From positions 1-29,739 of the forward strand of contig CAZFGR010000020.1 in NCBI GenBank assembly GCA_964518475.1: a stretch of DNA of 29,739 bases. The letters run 5' to 3'. Under the pieces are notes generated by a model that was not told where the DNA came from, did no database searches, and saw only the letters and a program-made list of their open reading frames with translations. Shown here in pieces: positions 305 through 12,921 of this stretch (within the stretch, counting starts at the first letter, position 1; each line of letters starts with the position of its first letter). The position numbers and the translations under genes were made by a program. The stretch is from an uncultured Nitrososphaerota archaeon. Its GTDB lineage: Archaea; Asgardarchaeota; Njordarchaeia; Njordarchaeales; Njordarchaeaceae.

Positions 305-1810
305 TCACAATTTTTTAATGATACTCATAGCTTTGTGCCATTTAGATAACTGTTTCTCTTTCTTTGGTTCGAAAATTTTCTCGATTTCTGGCTTTTTATG
401 TATATTCTTTATTTCTCTTTTTTCTAGTCCTCCTTTCGTCAGAAGAAAGACTCCTCTTGATGTTCCTTCCAGGTTTTTTACTCGTATTATTCTCTTGCCC
501 GAGAAGTCAGCGATTGCTTGTAACATATAATCGTTTCTTGAAGCATTACCGTCAGCAATTATTTCCTTTATTTCTATCTTAGTAATTTCTTCAAGGATTT
601 TAATAACTTCGCTACATCTGAAGGCTATACCCTCAAGTAGCGCTTTAATTACATCTTCTTTTTTAGTTGCTCTTGTTATGCCGTATATTAATCCCTTAGC
701 ATTAGGGTTCCAGTAGGGTGTGCCTAGACCTGCTAAGGCTGGGATAAAAATAGTGTCTTCAGAAACTGATTTTTCTGCTTTGATCGAGGCTTCTTCAGGG
801 GACTTAATCAAGCCTATACTCACTAGCCAGTCTATTGCTGATCCGGTGCTTTGAATTATTCCTTCCAAGAGGTAGCGTACTGTTTTTCCGACCTTTAACG
901 CAACTAGGGGATAAGTACCGAGCCTAGCTGGTTGAGGAGTTTCCCCTACGTTAATATCTATAAATGTTCCCGTACCATTCGTCATCTTTACAGTGCCTTT
1001 TCTTAATCCACCAGCAGAGAACAGGGATGCTTGCTGATCCGCTATTACTGCTGTTAGAGGAGCACCGTCTAGAATTGTTATTTCCCCGAAATACCCCATA
1101 TTATCGATGAGTTTTGGCAGGATACTCTTCGGTATACCTAGCATTTTTGTTAGTCTATCGCTCCATTTCATGAAGAATGGGTCGAATAACCCAGTAGCAC
1201 TAGCGTTTGTATAATCAGTTGCGTGAATTCCAATCATTTTCCATATTATCCAAGAATCTATCGTACCGAATGCTAACTCTCCATTCTTTGCACGCTTATA
1301 AATATCCTCTATATTCTCGAAGAGCCACTTTAAGTGAATTATGGGTTGATTAGGACCGAGTTTGAAGTTAGCTAGAGTTAGGAGGTAAAGGATTCTTTTA
1401 TTTCGAGAATGTTTTACTACTAGAGAAATCGTTTTACCAAGTGTTCTAGCGAATTTTAGCAATAATTGTTTATTGTATTTCTCTGCTATATCTATTGCTC
1501 TCGTATCCTGCCATGTGATCATATTGTAAAGAGGCTCTCCCGTTGATCTATCCCACACTATAGTGGAGGCTCTCTGGTTAGCCAGCCCAACAGCTAGTGG
1601 TTTACCGAATTCGTTATAGATCTCCATAATCACATCTCTAACCATTTCCCATAATTTCTCAGGATCTTGCTCCACCCAACCAGGTGATGGGAATCTAACT
1701 GGTGCACTTTTCTCAACTTTCTTAAGAATCTCTTCGTTAGGAGAATACGCGAAAGCCTTAACGGTTGTTGTGCCGACGTCCAATACGAGATAATACGTCA
1801 TTTTATACAT
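305..1810 (-). CDS. glpK: FGGY-family glycerol kinase-like protein (GK5-like subfamily)
   Basis: LDVGTT, PGWVEQDP, NQRASTIVWD, WQDTR, FGTIDSW, TDYTNASATG, DQQASL, GTGTF and LEGIAF motifs; basic/hydrophobic insert after WQDTR and ADQQ/GTGTFxDIN/YPL signatures recall GK5. Alternative start ATG at 1801. Confidence 0.88.
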   Translation of the reverse strand: MYKMTYYLVLDVGTTTVKAFAYSPNEEILKKVEKSAPVRFPSPGWVEQDPEKLWEMVRDVIMEIYNEFGKPLAVGLANQRASTIVWDRSTGEPLYNMITWQDTRAIDIAEKYNKQLLLKFARTLGKTISLVVKHSRNKRILYLLTLANFKLGPNQPIIHLKWLFENIEDIYKRAKNGELAFGTIDSWIIWKMIGIHATDYTNASATGLFDPFFMKWSDRLTKMLGIPKSILPKLIDNMGYFGEITILDGAPLTAVIADQQASLFSAGGLRKGTVKMTNGTGTFIDINVGETPQPARLGTYPLVALKVGKTVRYLLEGIIQSTGSAIDWLVSIGLIKSPEEASIKAEKSVSEDTIFIPALAGLGTPYWNPNAKGLIYGITRATKKEDVIKALLEGIAFRCSEVIKILEEITKIEIKEIIADGNASRNDYMLQAIADFSGKRIIRVKNLEGTSRGVFLLTKGGLEKREIKNIHKKPEIEKIFEPKKEKQLSKWHKAMSIIKKL

Positions 1811-1814
1811 CCCT

Positions 1815-2960
1815 CTACTTAATTATTTCTGTCAGAAACTCTACAATATCATAAGCTTTTCCACCAACTAGTTCTAGGCCCTTCTTTGCGGAGGGAGATG
1901 CCGTTACTATGATGTCTGACTCTTCTAGTAATTCAGTAAGTCTTTCTCTGTTAATGTTCTCCAGAAGCGCTGGATCAATCCAGTAAAGAGGATTGAGAAT
2001 ACCAGCGTAGAATGTGTTTTCTCCATGCCTCATAGGTAATTTTAGTTCTAGCCCTGGGATTTTTGAAAGAATTTTAACAAGAATATCCTCTTTCTTAAGC
2101 CCTATGGCGAGTTTAGGAGGTTCATGGATAGTTACTGTTTCATGTTTTTCGGAGAAGTTTACTACGTTTAGTCTTTCTTCTAATATTTCTGTGATGTGTT
2201 TTACTGGTGGCTTTACATTCACTTTAAATCGTGGATAAATCACTCTGTAGGTATAGACACATTCGGGACATAGGGAAACGATAGCTTTCGGCTTATAACT
2301 ATTTATTATCTGGGAGTTCTCAATAGCTATTTTAGTGAATGTTTTATCATCACCAATTTCATAAAGCAAATAGCCACAGCACATTTCCTCAGGAATTACG
2401 AAGGGTTTGAAGCCAAGACGCTCTAAAAGATTTACTGCTTTATTAATTAATTCTGGATAAAAACTCCTTGTTATACAGTCCTGTAGAAGTAATACCTCAC
2501 CGCCCTGGGGGTATTGGTTAAATTTCTTTTCGATTTTCCCAAATGGATTTCTATTATCTACTATTTTATTATATAATGTCTTGATTTGCTCTGGAACATT
2601 CCCACTTTCCAAAGCTCTGTTTCTTAATCCCCTAGTAAGCTCTGAGACTCTAAAATTAAAGAAACAATGAACGTAGCAACCGTCACATGATAGACAATAG
2701 TACAGAGGTTCAATATTCTCAGGCAATAAGTCTAGATGGTTTCTGCTTAGTAGATAACCGATGCGAGATTTCCCGCTTGGCGAAGTAGTCTCTCTGCCAT
2801 CTACGATAGCTACTGGACATGCGTATCGGCACATATTTGGACATAAGGCGCATTTTACAATATCTGGAACCTTTGATTTTTCGAAAAGAATCTTTCTGAG
2901 CGCACTTAGTTTTGTTCTAAAGGAGCTTCCTTTGATAGCTTCGAGTATCCAGCTACCCAT
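1815..2960 (-). CDS. Fe-S oxidoreductase (GlpC/GlcF/HdrD-like; two 4Fe-4S motifs plus CCG domains)
   Basis: CALCPNMCRYACP and CLSCDGCYVHC ferredoxin-type motifs; first CCG domain QDC…CCG…LCPEC; second CCG domain lacks Cys (HEPP…YAG…ASPSA). Confidence 0.88.
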   Translation of the reverse strand: MGSWILEAIKGSSFRTKLSALRKILFEKSKVPDIVKCALCPNMCRYACPVAIVDGRETTSPSGKSRIGYLLSRNHLDLLPENIEPLYYCLSCDGCYVHCFFNFRVSELTRGLRNRALESGNVPEQIKTLYNKIVDNRNPFGKIEKKFNQYPQGGEVLLLQDCITRSFYPELINKAVNLLERLGFKPFVIPEEMCCGYLLYEIGDDKTFTKIAIENSQIINSYKPKAIVSLCPECVYTYRVIYPRFKVNVKPPVKHITEILEERLNVVNFSEKHETVTIHEPPKLAIGLKKEDILVKILSKIPGLELKLPMRHGENTFYAGILNPLYWIDPALLENINRERLTELLEESDIIVTASPSAKKGLELVGGKAYDIVEFLTEIIK

Positions 2961-2962
2961 AT

Positions 2963-4396
2963 TTATACCCCCATATTACCCCTATTTAATATCGCCTTAT
3001 TATCAATTGCTCGCTTTATCTTCTTCAAAATATTCATAGCGGTGTCACCTAGATATTCTTTAATCCATTTAGCTCGCATTCTACCAATACCATGATGATG
3101 ACTAATTGCTCCTCCATGCTTTAGAGTCGCCTCCATGGCCGCCTTCCACACTTTTTCGTAATACTCTGTTGGAGAACTCCCCTTAGGAGGTAGTCCACCA
3201 AAGATGAAGTAGAAGCATACTCCTTGAGAATAGAAGTGCGATGCGTGGGCGTAAGCTATTAGTGTTCCTTCAACACCTCTTATAGCGTTTATCACGTCAT
3301 TATAAAGAGCAACAGCTTTTGACCAGGGAATAGCTACTTCAATCGTATCGATTACTATTCCCAATGGAGCGTATTCTGGTAACTCACGTACATCAAATCT
3401 CTTATCTAACCAGTACTTAACTGGTTCCTCTCCCATAGGTTCGGCATTGCTAAACTCTTCCTCAACTATCTGCTTCTCCGCTTCCACTAATTTTTCATCG
3501 CCTTCAAGTATTATTATTGTCCCGATTTTCCCTTTGGCTTTCTTCTTCATATGGAACCATTTCAGTGTTTCTACTTTGTCATATATTCTAATAACGGCAG
3601 GTCTTGCGCCTCTCCAGAGAATATTTCTAACCGAGTTCAATGCATCTTCAAGTGTTTCGCTAGCAAATGAAATAAAGATTCTCTTTCTAGGATATGGGTG
3701 AATCTTCAAGTACGCTTTCGTTACTATCCCAAATAACCCTTCCGCCTCTATGAATAATTTCTTAAGATCAGGGCCAATAGCTGCTCTTGGGTCAGGTCTC
3801 AATAGGAGGACTTCTCCAGTAGGAAGAACTGCTTCAAGACCTAGTAGCATGTCTTCAATACCCCCATATTTGGTGGAGAATTGGCCAATTGCTTTAGTGC
3901 TTATCCATCCACCGACCGTGGATGCGTATAAGGACTGGGGAAAATGCCCTAGCGTATATCCTTCCTTGTTAAGATATGTTTCGAGAATCATACCGTTGAT
4001 TCCGGCGCCTACTTCAACGTAGAGATCTTCTTTGAAAATTTTTATGTGTCTTAACCTCTTGGTATCGATTACTATTCCTCCATATTCAGGTACCGCTCCA
4101 CCCAAGACCCCTGTGCCGCCTCCGTATGGATATATGGGTATATTGTTTTCATACGCATATTTAACGACTTTAACAACATCCTCCGTGGATTCAGGAAAAA
4201 CAACAATATCAGGAAGAGCTGGCAAACGTCCCTCGAGAAACCATAATAGAGAGATAGGCCAATAATCGTGACTATAGGATACTAGATCAACAAATTTCTT
4301 AGATACTTTTCTTGGACTTAAAATGGTTACGAGATCCTTATAGATCTTATCGATATTTCTCGTCTCTTTCTGAGAAAACACTTCTTTAACCAGCAA
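2963..4396 (-). CDS. FAD-binding oxidoreductase, alkyldihydroxyacetonephosphate synthase-like (VAO/PCMH fold)
   Basis: PDIVVFPESTEDV, PYGGGTGVLGG, GHFPQSLYASTVGGWIST, GQFSTKYGGIED, AHASHFY and C-terminal SHHHGIG (HHH as in AGPS, not the GEHG of GlcD/D-LDH); TTG start with GAGGTGA RBS. Confidence 0.85.
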   Translation of the reverse strand: MLVKEVFSQKETRNIDKIYKDLVTILSPRKVSKKFVDLVSYSHDYWPISLLWFLEGRLPALPDIVVFPESTEDVVKVVKYAYENNIPIYPYGGGTGVLGGAVPEYGGIVIDTKRLRHIKIFKEDLYVEVGAGINGMILETYLNKEGYTLGHFPQSLYASTVGGWISTKAIGQFSTKYGGIEDMLLGLEAVLPTGEVLLLRPDPRAAIGPDLKKLFIEAEGLFGIVTKAYLKIHPYPRKRIFISFASETLEDALNSVRNILWRGARPAVIRIYDKVETLKWFHMKKKAKGKIGTIIILEGDEKLVEAEKQIVEEEFSNAEPMGEEPVKYWLDKRFDVRELPEYAPLGIVIDTIEVAIPWSKAVALYNDVINAIRGVEGTLIAYAHASHFYSQGVCFYFIFGGLPPKGSSPTEYYEKVWKAAMEATLKHGGAISHHHGIGRMRAKWIKEYLGDTAMNILKKIKRAIDNKAILNRGNMGV

Positions 4397-4740
4397 TATT
4401 CACCTCAGAGAAATTTATTTTTCTTATATTACAGTTTATGCTCCTAACTAGCTACTTTGCTTGTATTATCAAAAATTTTTCTAAATGCATGCTCTAAAAA
4501 AGATTCACATGAGCATACAGAGGAGGGCTCTATCACCATATCAACGCTAGATTAGTTTAAGGAACTAGTTATGAGATATGATCTAGATTTCAACGCTAGG
4601 TATATGATAGAGCTCATAAAAGAAAAATAATCAATACAGAGCTTATCCATGATGAAGAAACTTAAGAAATTGCTACACAAATGCCACTAAGGTGAGGCTG
4701 CGATCTCGTTATCCGTATTGATAAGAAGTGAATAGAGGAT

Positions 4741-5175
4741 CTATTCCTTGCTCATTTCCTTCTGGATCTCCGGTGGAATCGGATTCTCTATTATTAATCC
4801 GTATTTTGGTGCTTTCTTTATTATGTCCTTATCATTTGTAACAATTACCGGGATCTTTTTCTCCAAAGCTGTCGCTATCAGAAAGCCATCCCCCAACGGA
4901 ATGTTCTCCACCATAGCTATATCTAGGCCTCTTAGAGAGACTTGAGTGATTTTTAGATGCGTCACAACTAACTTGAGTTTTTTCAATAGATCTTTCCTTG
5001 GCTGAACCTTGTAGTACCAGTAAAGAACATTATATGTTTCTAGTATCGTGATGGGTGTTACATAAACTTCTATTACGCCTCTAATAGCTTTCTCAACTAT
5101 TTGCCATGCGTAAGGGTGGGCGATGTGGTCATCATAAAGAGCATAAGATAGCATATCCGCATCTATTATTCTCAT
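4741..5175 (-). CDS. vapC: PIN-domain ribonuclease, VapC-type toxin
   Basis: Acidic PIN residues IIDAD…ILETY…LGDGFLIATA…IVTND; 144 aa; directly downstream of an AbrB-type gene. Confidence 0.85.
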   Translation of the reverse strand: MRIIDADMLSYALYDDHIAHPYAWQIVEKAIRGVIEVYVTPITILETYNVLYWYYKVQPRKDLLKKLKLVVTHLKITQVSLRGLDIAMVENIPLGDGFLIATALEKKIPVIVTNDKDIIKKAPKYGLIIENPIPPEIQKEMSKE

Positions 5176-5178
5176 CCA

Positions 5179-5430
5179 TTAACCCCAGTACATGTGTTTG
5201 CCTTCTTCGGCATTTGCTTTAATTTTTTTCTTATCCCCGCGAAGTTTGATACTCTTTATCTTGTTAATGATTTCCTCCGCATCCTCTGCTTTCCTTACTA
5301 TTAGCTCTCCCTCCGGAGTCATCTCAATAACCACATTCGTCCCTGGAGGAAAGACCTCTCTGAAGACCCTTGGAATTAATACTCTACCCTTTCTATCTAT
5401 TTTTGAAAATCCCACACCCAAATCCCACAC
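5179..5430 (-). CDS. vapB: AbrB/MazE/SpoVT-family antitoxin (VapB-type)
   Basis: SKIDRKGRVLIPRVFR…PGTNVVIEMTPEGELIVRK swapped-hairpin signature; 3 nt from the PIN gene; true start may be TTG 5421 or GTG 5415. Confidence 0.85.
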   Translation of the reverse strand: MWDLGVGFSKIDRKGRVLIPRVFREVFPPGTNVVIEMTPEGELIVRKAEDAEEIINKIKSIKLRGDKKKIKANAEEGKHMYWG

Positions 5431-5432
5431 CC
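5407..5432. repeat. perfect 13-bp tandem duplication (AAATCCCACACCC x2) spanning the antitoxin start region
   Basis: 5407-5419 is identical to 5420-5432. Confidence 0.8.
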
Positions 5433-5521
5433 CCTACTATTAGGAATATTAGATAGAAAAAGAGTATAAATAGGTTCCGCAAAAGTGTCTTATTAGTAGG
5501 AATATAGTGTTCTAACTTGCC

Positions 5522-6451
5522 TTATTTAATTACTGGAATACTCTTGAGGATATCGTTTATTGATTCTTTTCTTTCAGCGGCCAATCCAGCTACGAACAAA
5601 TCTTTGATCGTTGTCTCCAAGTTCTCACCTTTTATCGGTTCTAATTTGCTGAAATCAATACCAGCTCCAACTTTCTTAATCAGAATTAGGTCTGGTAGGA
5701 AACCCTTGCTGATAATAAGTGTATCGCAAGAAATCTCTTCGATATCGTTGCTATCGTTCTTCATTACCTCTATTCTTTCTAATCTTTTTACTCCATGCAG
5801 TCGTATAACTTGTGCGTAATCTATGATTTCTATATCTTCCCGCTCAATAAATTCCTTGGTATCCTTTCTAATATCTCTATGCTTCTTGTCAGTTACTAGA
5901 TACTTTATATTCGAGCCTAACCCTTTTAAGCGTGTAACAACTTCTTTTACGAGTTCATTGTCTCCGTAGATTACTACATCACGACCAATTCTCTTGTTAA
6001 ATAAATCTACTAGTTTAATAGCTAATAGGGCTGTGAATACTCCTGCTGGCCTACTCCCAACTATCCTGAGATCGTATTGATTTATCTCTTTTCCACCAGT
6101 TGCCAGAACCACCTTTTCAGCATTAACTAAGGTAACTCCTTTGTTGGGATTAACACATATTACCTTAAAACCTTCCTGAAGATCGATCACTGTAGTCTCT
6201 TTCCAGATTTCAACCTCCGCACTTTGCAATTCATTATTTAGATTCATTAGAAGTTCTTGCGGGGCGATCTCTTCTCCAGTGTCTGGATAAGTAATGTTAA
6301 CGTGTCTCAGGTGTCTAAGTATTCCACCTATGGAGGGTTCACGCTCTATTATTAATACATTATCGAATCCATACTCACTAGCTTTTATTCCGAGATAACT
6401 CCCGGCCAATCCAGCACCTACAATGATAAGTTCTTTAGTAATCTCTTCCAT
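5522..6451 (-). CDS. FAD-dependent pyridine nucleotide-disulfide oxidoreductase-like protein, partner subunit of the GlpA-like dehydrogenase
   Basis: IVGAGLAG FAD motif, VVLATGG, GSRPAGVFTA, CDTLIIS, ETTIKDLFVAG; ATG at 6451 follows an AGGTGA RBS overlapping the upstream stop (ORF track starts at GTG 6460). Confidence 0.82.
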   Translation of the reverse strand: MEEITKELIIVGAGLAGSYLGIKASEYGFDNVLIIEREPSIGGILRHLRHVNITYPDTGEEIAPQELLMNLNNELQSAEVEIWKETTVIDLQEGFKVICVNPNKGVTLVNAEKVVLATGGKEINQYDLRIVGSRPAGVFTALLAIKLVDLFNKRIGRDVVIYGDNELVKEVVTRLKGLGSNIKYLVTDKKHRDIRKDTKEFIEREDIEIIDYAQVIRLHGVKRLERIEVMKNDSNDIEEISCDTLIISKGFLPDLILIKKVGAGIDFSKLEPIKGENLETTIKDLFVAGLAAERKESINDILKSIPVIK

Positions 6452-6456
6452 AAAAC

Positions 6457-7902
6457 TCACCTAAAGATCTCTGATCCAGCACCCTTCATCGTGACCTTAT
6501 CTACGGGGATTTTAAGTTCCTCACTAAGAATCCTAATTATCTCTGGTAGACACCGCGATCCCTGGCATCTACCCATGCAAGCATTAGTTCTGAACTTTAT
6601 GGAGTCTATTGTCTTAGCACCTCTTCTTATAGCTTCTCTTATCTCGGCTTCGGAAACATTGTTACAGAGGCATACTACTTTTCCGTATCTAGGATTTTCC
6701 CTTATTGCGTTATCAATTTCGTCAATACTCATATTTGATAATCCTTTGATAGCCTTGCGAACCTCTTTAAAATCGTCTTTTCCAACAAGTTCTAATCCCT
6801 CAGATTGCAGGATTTCTACGATTTTTTTAGCTATGATGTATGATGCGGTTAGACCTGGAGAGAGGATATAAGCAGCGTTTATGAACCCCTTCACCTCTGT
6901 CGGACCTAAAACAAAGTCCCAAGTATCCTCATTAACTGGTCTTACACCAGCATAATACTTCATAACAGCATTTACTGGGAAATCTGGTAAGAGTTCGTGA
7001 AACTTCTTTATGATCATATTTATATCCGATGAATCCACTTCAGTATCTTCTTTTCCCTTAGCTTCAACAAGATTCGGACCCCATATCGGAATCCCATCTG
7101 GGGAAATAGAGATTGCGCCTCCCTTTGTTCTGGGATCCACTCGAAGGGGCATTGGGGCAATTAAATGATTATAATAGTTCTGGAGACCTTGATCAAATAC
7201 CACCATTACTCCTTTACCATGCCACATCTTCCGTTTTCTTATTCCAGCTAATTCCTCTATTTTATCAGAATAAACTCCAGCGGCGTTTATTACAAATTTA
7301 GTCTCAATCCTCCCCTTATCCGTAACTACGGCTTTTATCTCGTTATTTTCTATTTCAAAACCAACAACTTGAGTATTGAGGAGAAAAATTACTCCGTTTT
7401 CAGCGGCATTCTCAGCTAGAGCAATGGCATACTTCACCGGATCCGTTACCCCTGCGGTGGGAACATATATAGCCGCTTTAGCTTTCCTATTCAGCTTGGG
7501 CTCCATCTCGAGAAGCTTCTTCTTCCATATCCACTTAGCATTTATCTTCTTAACAAGACGCAGATACAAATACGCGAAGATCAAGGCAAGAAATTGTACA
7601 AATGATAGCGCCACAATCAGAAGACCTGGCCGCTTAAATGGAATATCGAGCTCCTTAGCCAGTTTTTCAAACTCCTTGTTCCCTTCTAAGCACATCCATT
7701 CCTTATACTTACCTTTATGAGGAACAAAGGGATGTATAACACCCATATTACCCTTGGTGACACCCCACCCAACATCTGGTTCCTTATCTATTGCAACCAC
7801 TTTTAGTCTATATCTAGAGAGCTCTCTTGCAATTGCACAACCTACAACTCCACAACCAATTATAACAACATCAGCTTTTTCCGGCACCTCCTTGGATATC
7901 AT
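6457..7902 (-). CDS. glpA: FAD-dependent oxidoreductase with C-terminal BFD-like [2Fe-2S] domain (glycerol-3-phosphate dehydrogenase GlpA-like, DAO family)
   Basis: IIGCGVVG, TKGNMGVIH, INAAGVYSD, YAGVRP, SPGLTAS; C-terminal CLC…KFRT…MGRCQGSRC; context with a glycerol kinase homolog. Confidence 0.8.
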   Translation of the reverse strand: MISKEVPEKADVVIIGCGVVGCAIARELSRYRLKVVAIDKEPDVGWGVTKGNMGVIHPFVPHKGKYKEWMCLEGNKEFEKLAKELDIPFKRPGLLIVALSFVQFLALIFAYLYLRLVKKINAKWIWKKKLLEMEPKLNRKAKAAIYVPTAGVTDPVKYAIALAENAAENGVIFLLNTQVVGFEIENNEIKAVVTDKGRIETKFVINAAGVYSDKIEELAGIRKRKMWHGKGVMVVFDQGLQNYYNHLIAPMPLRVDPRTKGGAISISPDGIPIWGPNLVEAKGKEDTEVDSSDINMIIKKFHELLPDFPVNAVMKYYAGVRPVNEDTWDFVLGPTEVKGFINAAYILSPGLTASYIIAKKIVEILQSEGLELVGKDDFKEVRKAIKGLSNMSIDEIDNAIRENPRYGKVVCLCNNVSEAEIREAIRRGAKTIDSIKFRTNACMGRCQGSRCLPEIIRILSEELKIPVDKVTMKGAGSEIFR

Positions 7903-8052: not shown

Positions 8053-9783
8053 TCAGCCTAGTAATCGTCGAGCCAGAAACTCGGATAATTTTTTAATATC
8101 GTTCTCATTTCTTATTTTGAAAAGCCTTGCTCCTTTTTCCTCTAATTGTATTGCGAGCATATTGTACAGTGTTTCTGCGTGGAGAATATAGAGTTCATGT
8201 CCCTCTTCAAGTAATTGGAGGAGACAGTTCTTGGTTTTCTCCTGATTGTAAATCTCGGAATCTGTTATAAAAAAGACTAGTACTTTTCCTACAGCTTCTT
8301 TTATTAATCTCGTTAAAGCTTTGCATGGGAATTCTGTTCCATTAGCTTGATAGATTCCGATCGTGTTCTCTATTTCTTCATGCTTAGATCCCCATCTACT
8401 AATTATTGCTTTTCCAGAAAAATTCAAGACCGCTACTCTCGCTTTACTCTCCTTCGCATAACTAAGTAAGATATACGCTGTTAAGACTGCTAGGTCAAAT
8501 TTACTGTTTGGTGGATACTTCATCCCAAGTCTTTTCATCATACGTTTTGTTTGTTCGTCTATTCTTTCAAGTCTCCATCCTGGAAAATACCCCATACTTC
8601 CAGAACTATCAATGATTATGAGGATATTATGTTTCGGAACACCACCTTTCTCATCTACACTCCTTAATCCATAATGATCCCATTTGCGGGTCGTTAAATT
8701 GGGTATAAGTAGAGGAAAAGAGGATAACGAGAGGTAAATATCTAGTTTTTCTGGTGGATCAGTTACTTGCCATATTTTTGGAATCCTTACCGCTTCTCCT
8801 TCACGACTAACTCTTTTCTTCGGTGGCTGTTTAAGAAAGTCTTTAGCCCTTAATCGATACCACTGCTTAAGTAGCGGTGACGGATTTTTAATCCCAATAA
8901 CTTTCATAGCTGGTGTAGCCTTTATGATGTCTTTTCCAGTGGCCTCTAAAGCAGCTGTTATTAGTTCTAGCAAATCTGATGAAACCTCCCTCCCATGATA
9001 TCTCATCAACTGGAAAATGTCAGGAACATACGGATTTCGATACAAGATATTTTCTACTACCTTCTCTCTCCCTATAATTATCCGCGAAAACACTGGTTTT
9101 TTACTCTCCGAAAGCACCTTTTTGAGAGCTCTAGAGAAATTCCTTACAGCCTCTGGCCACTTCTCCTTTAAGAAGAATCCAGCCGATTCGAGAGCTTCAT
9201 AAGCTTTTTCACAAGCTTTTACAAAAAACTTATCGATTTTCTCCTTATACTTACTAGGGACTATTTCCTGCTCAGTGATCTTCTCCAATAGTAGGGTAAA
9301 GACCATAACTTTCTTGTTCTTAACAACTCGTTTCCAATCAATGCTCTCATACGATTTTTCAATAAACCATATTGTCTCATCTGGATATCTCTTATGAAGA
9401 TACGCGGTAATAACTAACTCAACGAATAAATTAGCTAAAAATACCCCCGTTTTCTCATCTGTTTCAGAAATAGCAATAGTTAAGATCTTTGTGGCATTAG
9501 CAGCGTCATAGGGACAGACAAGATAATATGCTATGCCACGTCGCCAAATCATTTTTAAGAAACGTGGTAAAGCTCCGTCAATCAATCTCCTCGGAATTCT
9601 AGAAACGTTCAGTTTTAGTACCCAATTCTCCTTATCAACACTAATAATACTCTCTCCCTTACCATTATGCACAATTATTGGTTCTGGAATAGAAGGGAAA
9701 TAAAACTCTGCTAGAACCTCTTTGTACAGTTTCTTAGCAAGTTTTACAAGATTCTCTCCAGCACTCATATCAAGTATCCTCAT
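8053..9783 (-). CDS. von Willebrand factor A (vWA) domain protein, MoxR partner
   Basis: Complete MIDAS: IIIDSSGSM, ANGT, FFITDSE; ATGA overlap with the upstream AAA gene. Confidence 0.85.
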   Translation of the reverse strand: MRILDMSAGENLVKLAKKLYKEVLAEFYFPSIPEPIIVHNGKGESIISVDKENWVLKLNVSRIPRRLIDGALPRFLKMIWRRGIAYYLVCPYDAANATKILTIAISETDEKTGVFLANLFVELVITAYLHKRYPDETIWFIEKSYESIDWKRVVKNKKVMVFTLLLEKITEQEIVPSKYKEKIDKFFVKACEKAYEALESAGFFLKEKWPEAVRNFSRALKKVLSESKKPVFSRIIIGREKVVENILYRNPYVPDIFQLMRYHGREVSSDLLELITAALEATGKDIIKATPAMKVIGIKNPSPLLKQWYRLRAKDFLKQPPKKRVSREGEAVRIPKIWQVTDPPEKLDIYLSLSSFPLLIPNLTTRKWDHYGLRSVDEKGGVPKHNILIIIDSSGSMGYFPGWRLERIDEQTKRMMKRLGMKYPPNSKFDLAVLTAYILLSYAKESKARVAVLNFSGKAIISRWGSKHEEIENTIGIYQANGTEFPCKALTRLIKEAVGKVLVFFITDSEIYNQEKTKNCLLQLLEEGHELYILHAETLYNMLAIQLEEKGARLFKIRNENDIKKLSEFLARRLLG

Positions 9784-11477
9784 GAAATAAGCGCTTTCCT
9801 AAGCTTCTCATGGATTTCTACAACGTTACTAAGCCCATATATGTCTATGTAAACAGGGCACCAGTCCTCGGTTCCAGTTATATGAATATTAACTAGTAGT
9901 CCATTCCCAGTAATAGATACTAGGCCCGGAGAGATTAATATATCATACCTTTTTGGAAAGTTAACGTACTCGCTTAGAACATAAGCAACTGGCTCGATTA
10001 TCTCTCGCCAGCGACCATAAGTAATCTCTATCGTCCTATGATTCTTCCTAATAAGCTTTTCATACACATGCATGAGCCTCTTCATCAATGGGTATGGCAG
10101 ATTTCGTGCCTTAGACAAAACTTCTTTGATCCTAGTCTCACTACCCTCCTCAATAGCATCAATTAGCTCCTTTATCATTACTGGATAATCAGAGTTCACA
10201 ACTACTCTAGCTGTAGGGTAGAGATCCATGGCAACTACGAGATCGCTATCACTGGATTCTTTCAAAGCATTTATTGTTGAAATATCAATATCTCCCAGCA
10301 AAATTTTTTCGAAGCCCTTGTAAAGTGGTAACCGAGCCACAAAGTTCTTTAAAACAGTCTCTACCACTTCTCTAGTAGCCTCGAAAACATTTCCATGAAA
10401 CTTTTCTAGGTATTCTGACTCGAATGTTAACCTATGCCATAGGACGTATGGTGCAATACTAGCTACGATCTCCAATGTTACTTCATCCAGTCCAAGAAGC
10501 CACGCCAGCGCTTTTGAGTATCTTACTAAATCCTGCGATGCTCTAACACTCACAAATGTTAGAACTCTATTACATACAGATTCTCTTGTGTTAAAATGAC
10601 AGCCCTCGCAAATGCTTTTACCTATTTGAAGAAATGCTCCAGTTTCTTTTGGTACTCTCACACATAAAGAAAGAGATTTTGTTAAGATACTTATGAATAA
10701 CTGAGCATCATTAGAAACGGGTATTCGAGAAATCACGTGCCAAAGAACCATTAACTCATTCTTAGACAATAAGGCTGGTACATTATAATCATTCGGTGGG
10801 AAGAGCTTTGTATCAGGCACCTCAGTAAGATTAAGGATTTCGTCAAACTTGGGGGAAACTATAGGAACAGCTAATCCAAATCTATCCAAGAAAGGAAGAC
10901 CTAGAGGGAAAGTTCCTACATCCCTAGGATTTATAGTTGCGTACAAGACATAATTGTCTACTCTATAAACTTCATCAAAATACTTTACTACACCCTCGCT
11001 AAGGAGAGAAAAAATAATATCTTGAGCATTTGGTGGTAATCTATTTATCTCATCAATGATTTTCCAGAAACTTTCAACAAATCTCCGCCACACAATTTCC
11101 TCCTTACCATCTCGGAGAAGCTTAGCTACGTGAAGCCTACCAACCATCTTCTCCTCCGTTATCTCAGGATGCGCACGAATAATTGCTTCCTCGATGGCTT
11201 CTATAGAATCGCCTGTCAATAGTCTTCCCAAGACTTTTACTAAGGTCGTCTTTCCGCCTCCGTATCCACCCACTAGTAGCATTGCGCCCTTGGGGACTAA
11301 AGCATTCAATACACATAAGGTAGCAACTAATGGTAGTTGCCGCTTCTCCCCATTTTTTAGGTACACTTCCAAAACATCACTGTGCACAAATATTTTATTC
11401 TCATTAACGAATTCAATTACTTTCCAAATCTTCCCCCTTAGATTCGCTACTCGGTCACTCGCTTCCATATCATTCAA
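9780..11477 (-). CDS. MoxR-family AAA+ ATPase
   Basis: Walker A GGYGGGKT, Walker B IIDEINR, sensor-1 YATINP, arginine finger FLDRF, sensor-2-like SVRA, WHRL. Confidence 0.9.
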   Translation of the reverse strand: MNDMEASDRVANLRGKIWKVIEFVNENKIFVHSDVLEVYLKNGEKRQLPLVATLCVLNALVPKGAMLLVGGYGGGKTTLVKVLGRLLTGDSIEAIEEAIIRAHPEITEEKMVGRLHVAKLLRDGKEEIVWRRFVESFWKIIDEINRLPPNAQDIIFSLLSEGVVKYFDEVYRVDNYVLYATINPRDVGTFPLGLPFLDRFGLAVPIVSPKFDEILNLTEVPDTKLFPPNDYNVPALLSKNELMVLWHVISRIPVSNDAQLFISILTKSLSLCVRVPKETGAFLQIGKSICEGCHFNTRESVCNRVLTFVSVRASQDLVRYSKALAWLLGLDEVTLEIVASIAPYVLWHRLTFESEYLEKFHGNVFEATREVVETVLKNFVARLPLYKGFEKILLGDIDISTINALKESSDSDLVVAMDLYPTARVVVNSDYPVMIKELIDAIEEGSETRIKEVLSKARNLPYPLMKRLMHVYEKLIRKNHRTIEITYGRWREIIEPVAYVLSEYVNFPKRYDILISPGLVSITGNGLLVNIHITGTEDWCPVYIDIYGLSNVVEIHEKLRKALIS

Positions 11478-12921
11478 CTCTTGCGATCATTCTCTTAAGT
11501 CTCTCAACTTCTTCAGATCCGATAACTCTGGATAGGTTTTCAAGGGCATTGTTAAAAATCTCAGTAAACTCCTTATCACTATAGATTTTAGCAAACATTG
11601 TGGGATGAGATATATTTTTTAATACACTTGATAAAGCAAGGAGGATATTATTATCCTTAGTACTTACCAACATTCTTAGGAATCTTTTTAGGATTTCATC
11701 CTTCCCAAAAATTCTTCTTAAATCAGATACTCTCCCATAAATTGCTAAATTCCATATAGCTTCGAGAGTTTTAGCATAAATCGCTCCTGAAAGAGAATCT
11801 TGTTCTTCTAGAATATCAGCAAGCATAATTATGATTTTCTCGCTGATTCTTCCCCGCTGAATGATGATAGTTAGCGTATCCAATATATCATAAAGACCTA
11901 TAGAAAAAGATTTCAGGTGATATAATTGTTCTCCAATATTCTCTACATCCACTTTATCTATCAATGCCTTTGTAGCCTTTGCGCTGATTTTTATTGCTGC
12001 TTTTTTTAGATCTGCATTCTTAAGAAGACCATAAAGCTCAATTACTTCGTAGGAATTCATTCCCAAAAGGCTTATCAATGACTGGACAGCATTTCCAGGA
12101 GCAATTCCTCCTTTCTCCGAGACAAGGATTTCATGCAACGACAAGACAATAGCGGAAATAGCTACGATAGAGAGCTCTGGATTCCTAAATATTGTCAAGA
12201 ATAGGGACTCAAGCTTATCTCTAGGTACATCATTTAGCCAGCAAAGGATATAGAACGAGGCGAATGCACTAATCTTATCAAAATTATTTCCGATTCTCTC
12301 TAAACTCTCGATAAAGCTTTGAGAAAACTCTTTTGTAAACAGCTTATCCGTGGTTAAGAGTAGAATTCTTAGACCCTCTACTACCTCTACTAACTTTTCA
12401 TCAACACCAGAAAATTCCAGTAGCTCTCTAGCTCTATTCATTATTCGTTGCTTAAACATTTCTAGTCTTTTCCATATCTCCTTACTCTTAGCAATATCTC
12501 TCAATATATCATCTAGTCCAATACCTAGCTCTTCACGAACCTCCTTATTGAGTACTAGTTCCAGCAGTTTTAGTATTTCTCCACTAACTAACTCGTATAT
12601 TTTAAGATCACAGACACGGCCTCTAATTGCTAACGAATTCCTTAACACGATTCTGAAATCAACTAAATAACCCTCCCCACAGTTCTCCTTTAAGAAATTC
12701 ATAAGAAAAGGTAAGGCACTATTCCAGAGCTCCATATTAATCGCTATCTCTGGCAAAAGTGCACATAGTTTTCTTAAGTTTTTTCTGCTCTTTTTAGCAC
12801 TTTCTAGCACCTCGAGTAGTCCCTTTGGATCATCATTGTTTAAAAGTGACAAAATATATTCCTTTGCTTCTCCTAACTTGTCTCTTGATAAAAGCTCTAG
12901 AAAGTACTCCTCGCCACCCAT
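11470..12921 (-). CDS. hypothetical all-helical protein with armadillo/HEAT-like repeats
   Basis: 483-aa ORF rich in L/I/E/K amphipathic helices; ARM-like units ending in EAIWNLA and SVLKNIS; overlaps the AAA gene by 8 nt. Confidence 0.75.
   Translation of the reverse strand: MGGEEYFLELLSRDKLGEAKEYILSLLNNDDPKGLLEVLESAKKSRKNLRKLCALLPEIAINMELWNSALPFLMNFLKENCGEGYLVDFRIVLRNSLAIRGRVCDLKIYELVSGEILKLLELVLNKEVREELGIGLDDILRDIAKSKEIWKRLEMFKQRIMNRARELLEFSGVDEKLVEVVEGLRILLLTTDKLFTKEFSQSFIESLERIGNNFDKISAFASFYILCWLNDVPRDKLESLFLTIFRNPELSIVAISAIVLSLHEILVSEKGGIAPGNAVQSLISLLGMNSYEVIELYGLLKNADLKKAAIKISAKATKALIDKVDVENIGEQLYHLKSFSIGLYDILDTLTIIIQRGRISEKIIIMLADILEEQDSLSGAIYAKTLEAIWNLAIYGRVSDLRRIFGKDEILKRFLRMLVSTKDNNILLALSSVLKNISHPTMFAKIYSDKEFTEIFNNALENLSRVIGSEEVERLKRMIARVE

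Follow-up and report, generated by a model that had tools for sequence, protein, structure and literature searches.

The stretch of DNA analyzed here, which we call the window, comprises 29,739 nucleotides (nt) of contig CAZFGR010000020.1 from an uncultured archaeon of the Njordarchaeales, and all coordinates given below are window positions. Between positions 305 and 7902 it carries seven tightly packed genes on the minus strand, five of which encode enzymes and two of which form a VapBC pair. In the direction of transcription, the enzyme genes encode a dehydrogenase of 481 amino acids (aa) that contains flavin adenine dinucleotide (FAD) and resembles FngA and GlpA (6457 to 7902), a short and strongly diverged FngB-like flavoprotein of 312 aa (5522 to 6460; Pfam Pyr_redox_2), a VAO-fold flavoprotein of 477 aa from the family of AGPS, the alkyl-dihydroxyacetone phosphate (alkyl-DHAP) synthase (2963 to 4396), an iron-sulfur (Fe-S) subunit of 381 aa with CCG and Fer4_8 domains (1815 to 2960), and an FGGY kinase of 501 aa that is paralogous to GlpK (305 to 1810). 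The FngB-like gene overlaps the FngA gene by 4 nt, and the flavoprotein and CCG genes lie 2 nt apart. A first reading of this DNA made from the sequence only listed these five co-oriented enzyme genes, all of which are indeed present, but left out the VapBC pair between FngB and the flavoprotein. This pair, which lies outside the pathway considered below, consists of a VapB-like antitoxin of 83 aa (5179 to 5430) without a Pfam match, which, judging from its N-terminal motif, is probably of the AbrB/SpoVT type, and, 3 nt downstream of it, a PIN-domain toxin (VapC; 4741 to 5175; Pfam PIN, E value of 1.5e-10). A 344-nt gap separates the PIN gene from the flavoprotein gene.

The identity of the VAO-fold flavoprotein, which matches Pfam FAD_binding_4 (PF01565) and FAD-oxidase_C (PF02913), was examined by sequence and structure comparison. 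When phmmer was run against the Protein Data Bank (PDB), Dictyostelium AGPS was the first match, with an E value of 1.7e-61, followed by guinea-pig AGPS at 2.8e-61 (entries 2uuu and 4bby), while the nearest lactate dehydrogenase, LctD, reached 2.8e-34. The structure model of the flavoprotein (predicted local distance difference test [pLDDT] of 82.8) likewise had AGPS as its top Foldseek match, with an E value of 4.6e-33 and a TM score of 0.83. Mammalian AGPS (EC 2.5.1.26) residues Arg419, Thr568, Tyr578, and His615 to His617, in guinea-pig numbering, pair with R270, S386, Y396, and H433 to H435 of the window protein, and these are invariant among 13 orthologs (alignment A1). The histidines belong to an ISHHHGIG motif at residues 431 to 438, and alignment to both 4bby and 2uuu places the SHHHG loop (residues 432 to 436; 3089 to 3103) on the His615-617 loop of AGPS, and the motif on which the sequence-only reading had based its AGPS assignment is thus present. 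By these comparisons, the flavoprotein is a member of the AGPS family and is much closer to AGPS than to GlcD or D-lactate dehydrogenase, and it shares with the eukaryotic and myxobacterial AGPS enzymes the two-domain VAO fold, the HHH loop, the catalytic tyrosine, the equivalent of Arg419, and, presumably, a DHAP-type ketone substrate provided by an enzyme of the glycerol 3-phosphate (G3P) dehydrogenase type. Orthologs are also labeled alkyldihydroxyacetonephosphate synthase by JGI.

An alternative is that the flavoprotein and the Fe-S subunit form an ordinary GlcD/GlcF-type D-lactate or glycolate dehydrogenase that happens to lie beside glycerol genes and uses, for example, D-lactate derived from DHAP via methylglyoxal. 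GlcDF also pairs a VAO flavoprotein with a ferredoxin-like/CCG subunit, sometimes in one fused protein, the best NCBIfam match of the flavoprotein is the GlcD model TIGR00387 (3.2e-54), the GlcF and GlpC models match the CCG protein, and in Foldseek, mouse D-lactate dehydrogenase ranks second (about 5e-28). However, the TIGR00387 score of 184.3 is far below the cut-off of 567.9, as is the score of 36.2 that the CCG protein obtained with the GlcF model NF008434 (cut-off, 333), and AGPS is ahead of the lactate dehydrogenases by 27 orders of magnitude in E value. The motif is SHHHG instead of SGEHG, the metal-ligand motif of the D-2-hydroxyacid enzymes, the second CCG cluster has been lost in the lineage of the window, and gene fusions with GlpD and with FGGY kinases, described below, link the flavoprotein to a glycerol phosphate chain. 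We therefore consider a GlcD/GlcF-type function highly improbable.

The Fe-S subunit consists of a ferredoxin-like domain with two [4Fe-4S] sites and two CCG domains, of which the first is intact and the second is free of cysteines (alignments A2 and A3). All of the cysteines of this second domain are gone, and its length is kept, throughout the lineage of the window (the window and loci L092, L093, and L005); since the loss persists over 40 to 50% divergence, it is a stable trait and not recent decay. In L092, the subunit also lacks one Cys of the first CCG motif. Among the neighborhoods, which we compared by tblastn over 80 loci and by clustering of their open reading frames, the AGPS-like and CCG genes were adjacent in all 22 archaeal loci and all 10 Bacillota loci that had both, and Bacillota also encode single polypeptides of about 890 to 925 aa in which the two are joined. 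The complex of the two window proteins was predicted with an ipSAE of 0.93 in three runs, compared to 0.00 for the best of three controls; 58 of 80 solved complexes and 2 of 110 mismatched pairs attained the ipSAE mark applied. The runs shared at least 95% of their contacts, and the pLDDT of the partner was at least 89. On the Fe-S side, the modeled interface involves residues 3 to 31 of an N-terminal extension and residues 35 to 101 of the two-[4Fe-4S] domain, and on the flavoprotein side it involves the N-terminal helices and a loop near the active site (residues 334 to 347). The fusions and the passing complex prediction agree with the earlier proposal that the Fe-S protein is the partner of the flavoenzyme, and the model supports their binding to each other.

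The N-terminal extension of the Fe-S subunit (residues 1 to 35; 2856 to 2960) had been described as amphipathic. The extension is real and is conserved in the archaeal orthologs, with the exception of two archaeal forms (L016 and L052), and is absent from the Bacillota forms, but it is only weakly amphipathic. A role as a membrane anchor was rejected because its hydrophobic moment is low and because it lies in the predicted subunit interface, and it is better explained by the model as an element that docks onto the flavoprotein.

The kinase is, by sequence comparison, a specialized GlpK paralog and not the housekeeping GlpK. Its score with the GlpK equivalog model TIGR01311 is 373.6 bits, below the cut-off of 590.35, and a canonical GlpK (731 bits) is encoded on a different contig of the same genome, where a lipase-like hydrolase is its neighbor, while a third contig carries a canonical GlpA and GlpB pair. 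We aligned the kinase with solved and canonical GlpK proteins and compared the residues that we take to be the six glycerol-site residues of E. coli GlpK, namely Arg83, Glu84, Trp103, Tyr135, Asp245, and Phe270. The positions of Arg83, Trp103, Asp245, and Phe270 are kept. The Glu84 position is occupied by Ala, giving NQRAST in place of NQRETT, and the SYFS motif that contains Tyr135 is missing. Both Glu84 and Tyr135 were lost in every AGPS-linked kinase examined, archaeal and bacterial. In its FGGY fold, its catalytic Asp245, and the part of the pocket on the phosphoryl-acceptor side, the kinase thus agrees with GlpK and metazoan GK5, and its distal pocket is altered, from which we infer that the substrate is glycerol-like at the phosphoryl-acceptor end and carries something other than a free hydroxymethyl group at the far end. 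Just before the Tyr135 position lies an insert of about 40 aa (residues 113 to 155; 1346 to 1474) that is common to the archaeal syntenic orthologs and absent from GlpK. It contains 10 Lys and Arg residues and 1 Asp or Glu residue, has a hydrophobic moment of up to 0.64, and was modeled as two helices (residues 116 to 131 and 138 to 146; pLDDT of 85 to 91), so that the basic and hydrophobic insert pointed out in the first reading proved to be a cationic amphipathic element. Like the extension of the Fe-S subunit, it is a conserved feature of the syntenic archaeal homologs. In a tree of the kinases, the archaeal AGPS-linked proteins formed a well-supported clade apart from two canonical GlpKs, and the backbone was unresolved. 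The earlier description of the kinase as GK5-like has soft support from the name "glycerol kinase 5" that NCBI and UniRef give to some of its relatives and from one atlas cluster that mixes archaeal and arthropod members.

The FngA-like protein matches Pfam DAO (6.6e-62) and, at its C terminus, the [2Fe-2S] domain Fer2_BFD (4.5e-13), and its score was below the cut-off of every G3P oxidase and GlpA model of NCBIfam. From these matches, it is a paralog of the catalytic subunit of G3P dehydrogenases. The FngABC trimer of Pyrococcus furiosus, made up of GlpA-like, NOX, and DUF1667 proteins, works as a G3P:NAD/ferredoxin oxidoreductase with electron bifurcation (Schut, Poole and Adams; PMC13689815). 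The window shares with this system adjacent FngA (DAO and BFD) and FngB (Pyr_redox) homologs, and the relatives of the cluster carry all three Fng subunits. The AGPS-linked FngA orthologs differ from canonical FngA in that most are 585 to 590 aa long and have an N-terminal BON domain together with an aromatic and basic, amphipathic insert of about 20 aa, both of which we found only in AGPS-linked FngA paralogs. At the site of this insert, canonical FngA and GlpA have an acidic helix, and the two BON-less FngA proteins (window and L016) have a hydrophobic helix. In the window protein, it spans residues 94 to 117 (7552 to 7623) and reaches a Kyte-Doolittle 19-residue mean of 2.55 over residues 94 to 112, and it corresponds to the membrane-length hydrophobic stretch that the first reading had noticed in the GlpA homolog.

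In the window itself, the Fng part of the cluster is reduced. The FngB-like protein is 26% identical to residues 2 to 308 of Njordarchaeum FngB but is 312 aa long, compared to about 416 aa, lacks approximately 100 C-terminal residues, and has a degraded glycine motif in its second Rossmann fold. The genome, at 91% completeness, contains no DUF1667 (FngC), and no remnants of the FngB C terminus or of FngC were found in the window around the VapBC insertion. The VapBC pair (4741 to 5430) sits exactly where relatives have the end of FngB and FngC, and its insertion may have caused the truncation. A different VapBC pair lies just downstream of the kinase in the Njordarchaeum locus L002. Relatives at 67 to 74% identity keep only the triad of AGPS-like, CCG, and kinase genes. 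Because FngB is truncated, FngC and the BON domain are missing, and the closest relatives have the triad only, we conclude from these comparisons that the triad is probably the functional core in the lineage of the window and that the Fng part is either eroding or has changed its function.

We then compared the organization of the cluster across lineages. AGPS-like, CCG, FngA, FngB, FngC, and kinase genes are syntenic in seven archaeal lineages (Njordarchaeota, Thermoplasmatota, Thermofilaceae, Hadarchaeota, Thermoproteota, Theionarchaea, and Thermococci). In Palaeococcus pacificus, a canonical GlpK-FngA-FngB-FngC operon lies at 0.45 Mb, and a separate cluster of AGPS-like, CCG, BON-FngA, FngB, FngC, and kinase genes lies at 1.53 Mb. 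About 26 loci of Actinomycetota, Binatia, and unclassified bacteria have the order GlpD-type, AGPS-like, kinase, the GlpD identity having been confirmed for one locus with Pfam and NCBIfam, and loci of the Bacillota type have the order GntR, AGPS-like, CCG, and a lipid kinase of the YegS/Rv2252 family. Natural fusions join a GlpD-type part to a following AGPS-like part (1036 aa), an AGPS-like part to a following GlpD-type part (1107 aa), an AGPS-like part to an FGGY kinase (963 aa), and CCG to BON-FngA (937 aa; L025:5095-7908); the last of these hints at a larger complex. Since nonorthologous dehydrogenases, FngA and GlpD, occupy the same place and are accompanied by fusions in both orders, the arrangement provides strong evidence at the level of gene organization that the kinase product passes to a G3P dehydrogenase-type step, the product of which is then the substrate of the AGPS-like enzyme. 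The series from kinase to G3P dehydrogenase-type enzyme to AGPS-like enzyme put forward in the first reading is thus backed by synteny in three prokaryotic groups as well as by the fusions. The module is not specific to archaea, since Actinomycetota, Binatia, and Bacillota have it as well and a comparable operon has been reported in Pseudomonas.

That operon is PA3026-PA3023 of Pseudomonas aeruginosa, which, along with the phospholipase C PlcA, is activated more than 40-fold by GliR and which encodes an FAD oxidoreductase proposed to be an AGPS (PA3026), a GlpD homolog (PA3025), an FGGY kinase (PA3024), and a YegS lipid kinase (PA3023); its deletion left growth on glycerol unaffected (PMC8151288). 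Judged by gene content and by that paper's annotation of PA3026, it resembles the archaeal cluster in combining a proposed AGPS, a GlpD/G3P dehydrogenase homolog, and an FGGY kinase beside housekeeping glp genes. It differs from the window in its GlpD-type dehydrogenase, the lack of a CCG subunit, and the additional YegS lipid kinase. It also bears out the earlier statement that AGPS-like genes next to glycerol kinases are known without an established function (PMC8151288).

Taken together, the above-described results lead us to propose, with a probability of roughly 45%, that the cluster forms a conserved accessory module, separate from the ordinary glycerol genes, whose substrate has a three-carbon glycerol backbone but is not plain glycerol. 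Its invariant core would be the AGPS-family flavoprotein bound to the CCG subunit, followed by the specialized GlpK paralog. The chief argument is that plain glycerol would give DHAP after two steps and leave the third enzyme idle, and the backbone should therefore be a substituted one. The kinase would phosphorylate the free primary hydroxyl of a glycerol that bears a substituent on C1 at its other end, which is most likely lipid derived (a 1-O-alkyl or 1-acyl group) or is possibly a phosphodiester-linked group. An enzyme of the G3P dehydrogenase type, which would be FngA in this cluster, a GlpD-type protein in bacteria, and possibly the flavoprotein itself where there is no neighboring dehydrogenase, would then oxidize C2 to give a substituted DHAP. 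The AGPS-like enzyme would break the C1-O bond and free DHAP with a tyrosine as the base and through a carbanion at C1 and an adduct at N5 of the flavin, and the Fe-S subunit would shuttle electrons to or from the flavin, either to absorb a net oxidation or to keep the flavin oxidized in an anaerobe.

The favored substrate is a C1-substituted glycerol that is probably lipid derived. Several features hint at lipids or membranes, among them the cationic insert of the kinase, the BON domain and the hydrophobic or aromatic replacements in the AGPS-linked FngA proteins, the SCP2 and YdjM genes of the Theionarchaea locus, the acyl-CoA-synthetase-like genes that lie upstream in two loci, the lipid kinases of the Bacillota, and the Pseudomonas operon. 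An ether lipid is plausible by analogy, and an ether substituent is chemically attractive because AGPS makes that bond; AGPS also exchanges the alkyl group, and water can serve as the acceptor. In this form, the pathway would cleave glycerol ether lipids without oxygen, the alkylglycerol being phosphorylated, oxidized to alkyl-DHAP, and split on a flavo-iron-sulfur enzyme by reversed AGPS chemistry into DHAP and a fatty alcohol, a proposal that we regard as somewhat unlikely. The remodeling of archaeal ether lipids that the sequence-only reading had also envisaged is unlikely. Archaeal diether lipids are etherified at C2 as well, which makes C2 oxidation impossible, and they therefore cannot be substrates, and the presence of the module in bacteria argues against a role specific to archaeal membranes.

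A number of observations weigh against our proposal, either as a whole or in its alkyl ether form. The same logic applies equally well to acyl or phosphodiester-linked substituents, which are the better leaving groups, and nothing singles out the alkyl ether that had originally been favored, and the transporters found adjacent to the clusters (MFS and ArsB/DASS/CitMHS types by NCBIfam) give no hint of the substrate. The view that a YegS-type lipid kinase replaces the FGGY kinase in Bacillota is weakened by the presence of both kinases in Pseudomonas. The cluster in the window has a shortened FngB, a BON-less FngA, no FngC, and an Fe-S subunit without the second CCG cluster, and in the closest, triad-only relatives C2 oxidation would have no clear enzyme. 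The alignment with AGPS opens at guinea-pig residue 179, which is paired with residue 35 of the window protein, and the N-terminal part of AGPS, about 145 to 175 residues, is therefore absent; the AGPS-specific gating element lies in this part. Published work on AGPS assigned catalysis to R352, Y508, and R447 and the gating of the fatty-chain channel to an extra domain (PMC3509576). The equivalent of Dictyostelium Arg447 is not aligned in the window protein, in which the residue faces Pro340, with Arg337 three residues upstream; the loop concerned (residues 338 to 342) has low confidence in the model. Finally, AGPS is redox neutral and stands alone, whereas the window protein is predicted to bind the CCG subunit and is fused to it elsewhere. 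We therefore argue that the overall reaction probably differs from that of AGPS, the Fe-S partner implying a net redox chemistry that true AGPS does not perform, and the forms of Actinomycetota that lack a CCG partner show that the role of this partner is not universal.

Two roles may be considered for the Fe-S subunit. The flavoprotein itself may carry out a net oxidation, which would account for the closest relatives having only the triad. Alternatively, the subunit may keep the flavin oxidized in a reducing cytoplasm, which would explain the CCG-free forms of the Actinomycetota, which are aerobic. AGPS requires oxidized flavin, and addition of substrate reduces its flavin (PMC3509576).

The same observations allow a different reading, in which the flavoprotein and CCG subunit form a new dehydrogenase for glycerol phosphate or DHAP that acts on an unsubstituted backbone. 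It could use, for example, sn-glycerol-1-phosphate, the backbone of archaeal lipids and also a head group of phosphatidylglycerol and lipoteichoic acid, while Fng or GlpD would use G3P and the kinase would make one of the two enantiomers or phosphorylate dihydroxyacetone. A VAO flavoprotein with a CCG subunit is a standard dehydrogenase layout, as in GlcDF and as the NCBIfam matches reflect, and the predicted complex, like the fusions, supports an exchange of electrons between the partners. No G3P dehydrogenase accompanies the triad in the closest relatives, two types of dehydrogenase per cluster would suit two stereoisomers, and a pocket without Glu84 and Tyr135 could hold glycerol in another orientation or accommodate a keto substrate. 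Conversely, the conserved residues are those of the enolate and adduct chemistry of AGPS on a ketone and not of alcohol oxidation, the fusions of GlpD-type and AGPS-like parts suggest consecutive instead of parallel steps, and this reading would not account for the membrane- and lipid-related traits of the kinase and the FngA paralogs. On balance, we judge this dehydrogenase to be unlikely.

It is also conceivable that the cluster degrades another soluble polyol or polyol phosphate with four or five carbons, such as an erythritol-like compound. Many FngABC homologs adjoin sugar kinases, are without glycerol-related neighbors, and may act on other polyols (PMC13689815), and the kinase scored below the GlpK cut-off. 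Nevertheless, the kinase is still nearest to GlpK and keeps four of the six glycerol-site residues, the nearest relative of the flavoprotein is an enzyme that binds DHAP, and neither a sugar isomerase nor an aldolase or sugar transporter was conserved in the neighborhoods examined, which makes a soluble polyol distinctly unlikely.

We consider it very unlikely that the flavoprotein is a true biosynthetic AGPS, in which case it would make alkyl-DHAP for nonisoprenoid ether lipids, FngAB would act as an alkyl-DHAP reductase, and the kinase would salvage alkylglycerol as in eukaryotes. The conservation of the catalytic residues and the JGI name fit this direction, but the AGPS N-terminal part is missing, and neither a DHAP acyltransferase nor a fatty-acyl reductase was conserved in the neighborhoods examined, where the AGPS-like gene lies in an operon with a kinase. 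The ethers for which Thermococcales and the other hosts are known are isoprenoid and arise by prenyl transfer, and the patchy, accessory distribution and the substrate-type regulators (GntR and AraC) fit catabolism better. Synthesis is nevertheless the direction proposed in the Pseudomonas paper (PMC8151288), and FngAB without FngC was suggested to run reductively (Schut et al. 2026, PMC13689815).

Prokaryotic AGPS homologs have already been reported in metagenome studies as presumed ether lipid synthases, and the Pseudomonas operon has been described with its function uncharacterized. Our literature searches on the archaeal AGPS-like/glycerol kinase cluster, on Rv2251/Rv2252, and on anaerobic alkylglycerol cleavage found no characterization, and we found no published account of an archaeal cluster that includes a CCG partner and FngABC paralogs. 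In Mycobacterium tuberculosis, the flavoprotein Rv2251 presumably lies beside the lipid kinase Rv2252 and near glpD1, an arrangement that provides a lead only. To our knowledge, there is no known route for the breakdown of ether lipids in anoxic sediments and hot springs. The oxygen-dependent alkylglycerol monooxygenase has been called the only known alkylglycerol-degrading enzyme (PMC7911779). If the module does cleave ethers, it would be the first oxygen-independent route for cutting glycerol ether lipids, would provide functions for the orphan PA3026-PA3024 operon and for prokaryotic "AGPS homologs," and would suggest an ancestry for eukaryotic AGPS and GK5. Prokaryotic AGPS homologs are counted in metagenomes as markers of ether lipid synthesis (PMC11868695), and such inferences would need revision if these proteins belong to a catabolic kinase/dehydrogenase/AGPS-like chain. 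The flavoprotein-CCG complex would represent a novel type of flavo-iron-sulfur enzyme that arose from a redox-neutral catalyst, and the archaeal FngABC paralogs would extend a newly described bifurcating family to a second substrate. The cultured hosts Palaeococcus pacificus, Thermococcus sp. EP1, and P. aeruginosa make the question directly testable.

Several further observations were made in the course of these comparisons. At the Theionarchaea locus (L090:16076-20129), the cluster contains or adjoins a gene for a YdjM-family membrane hydrolase and two for SCP2 lipid carriers, and a weak YdjM match lies near the triad of L093. The CCG-BON-FngA fusion gene of L025 is preceded by acyl-CoA-synthetase-like, GntR, and AGPS-like genes and followed by FngB and a DUF1667 gene; the record is labeled Methylocystaceae, which may be a binning error. 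Proteins of about 900 to 1640 aa (P0243, P0255, and P0246) have two tandem AGPS-like VAO modules, some with an additional GlpD part; such tandem-VAO proteins are reminiscent of GlcD-GlcE pairs and come mostly from metagenome-assembled genomes of Deltaproteobacteria or Elusimicrobiota. The canonical GlpK of the window genome (contig C15, L088:2701-10477) is flanked by an aminotransferase gene and by a convergent Hydrolase_4 gene that resembles monoacylglycerol lipase, and it lies downstream of a four-gene set for a sulfhydrogenase-like NiFe hydrogenase. Directly upstream of the enzyme genes in the window, at 8053 to 12921, two large proteins without a Pfam match flank a MoxR-type AAA+ ATPase (AAA_5 and AAA_lid_2).

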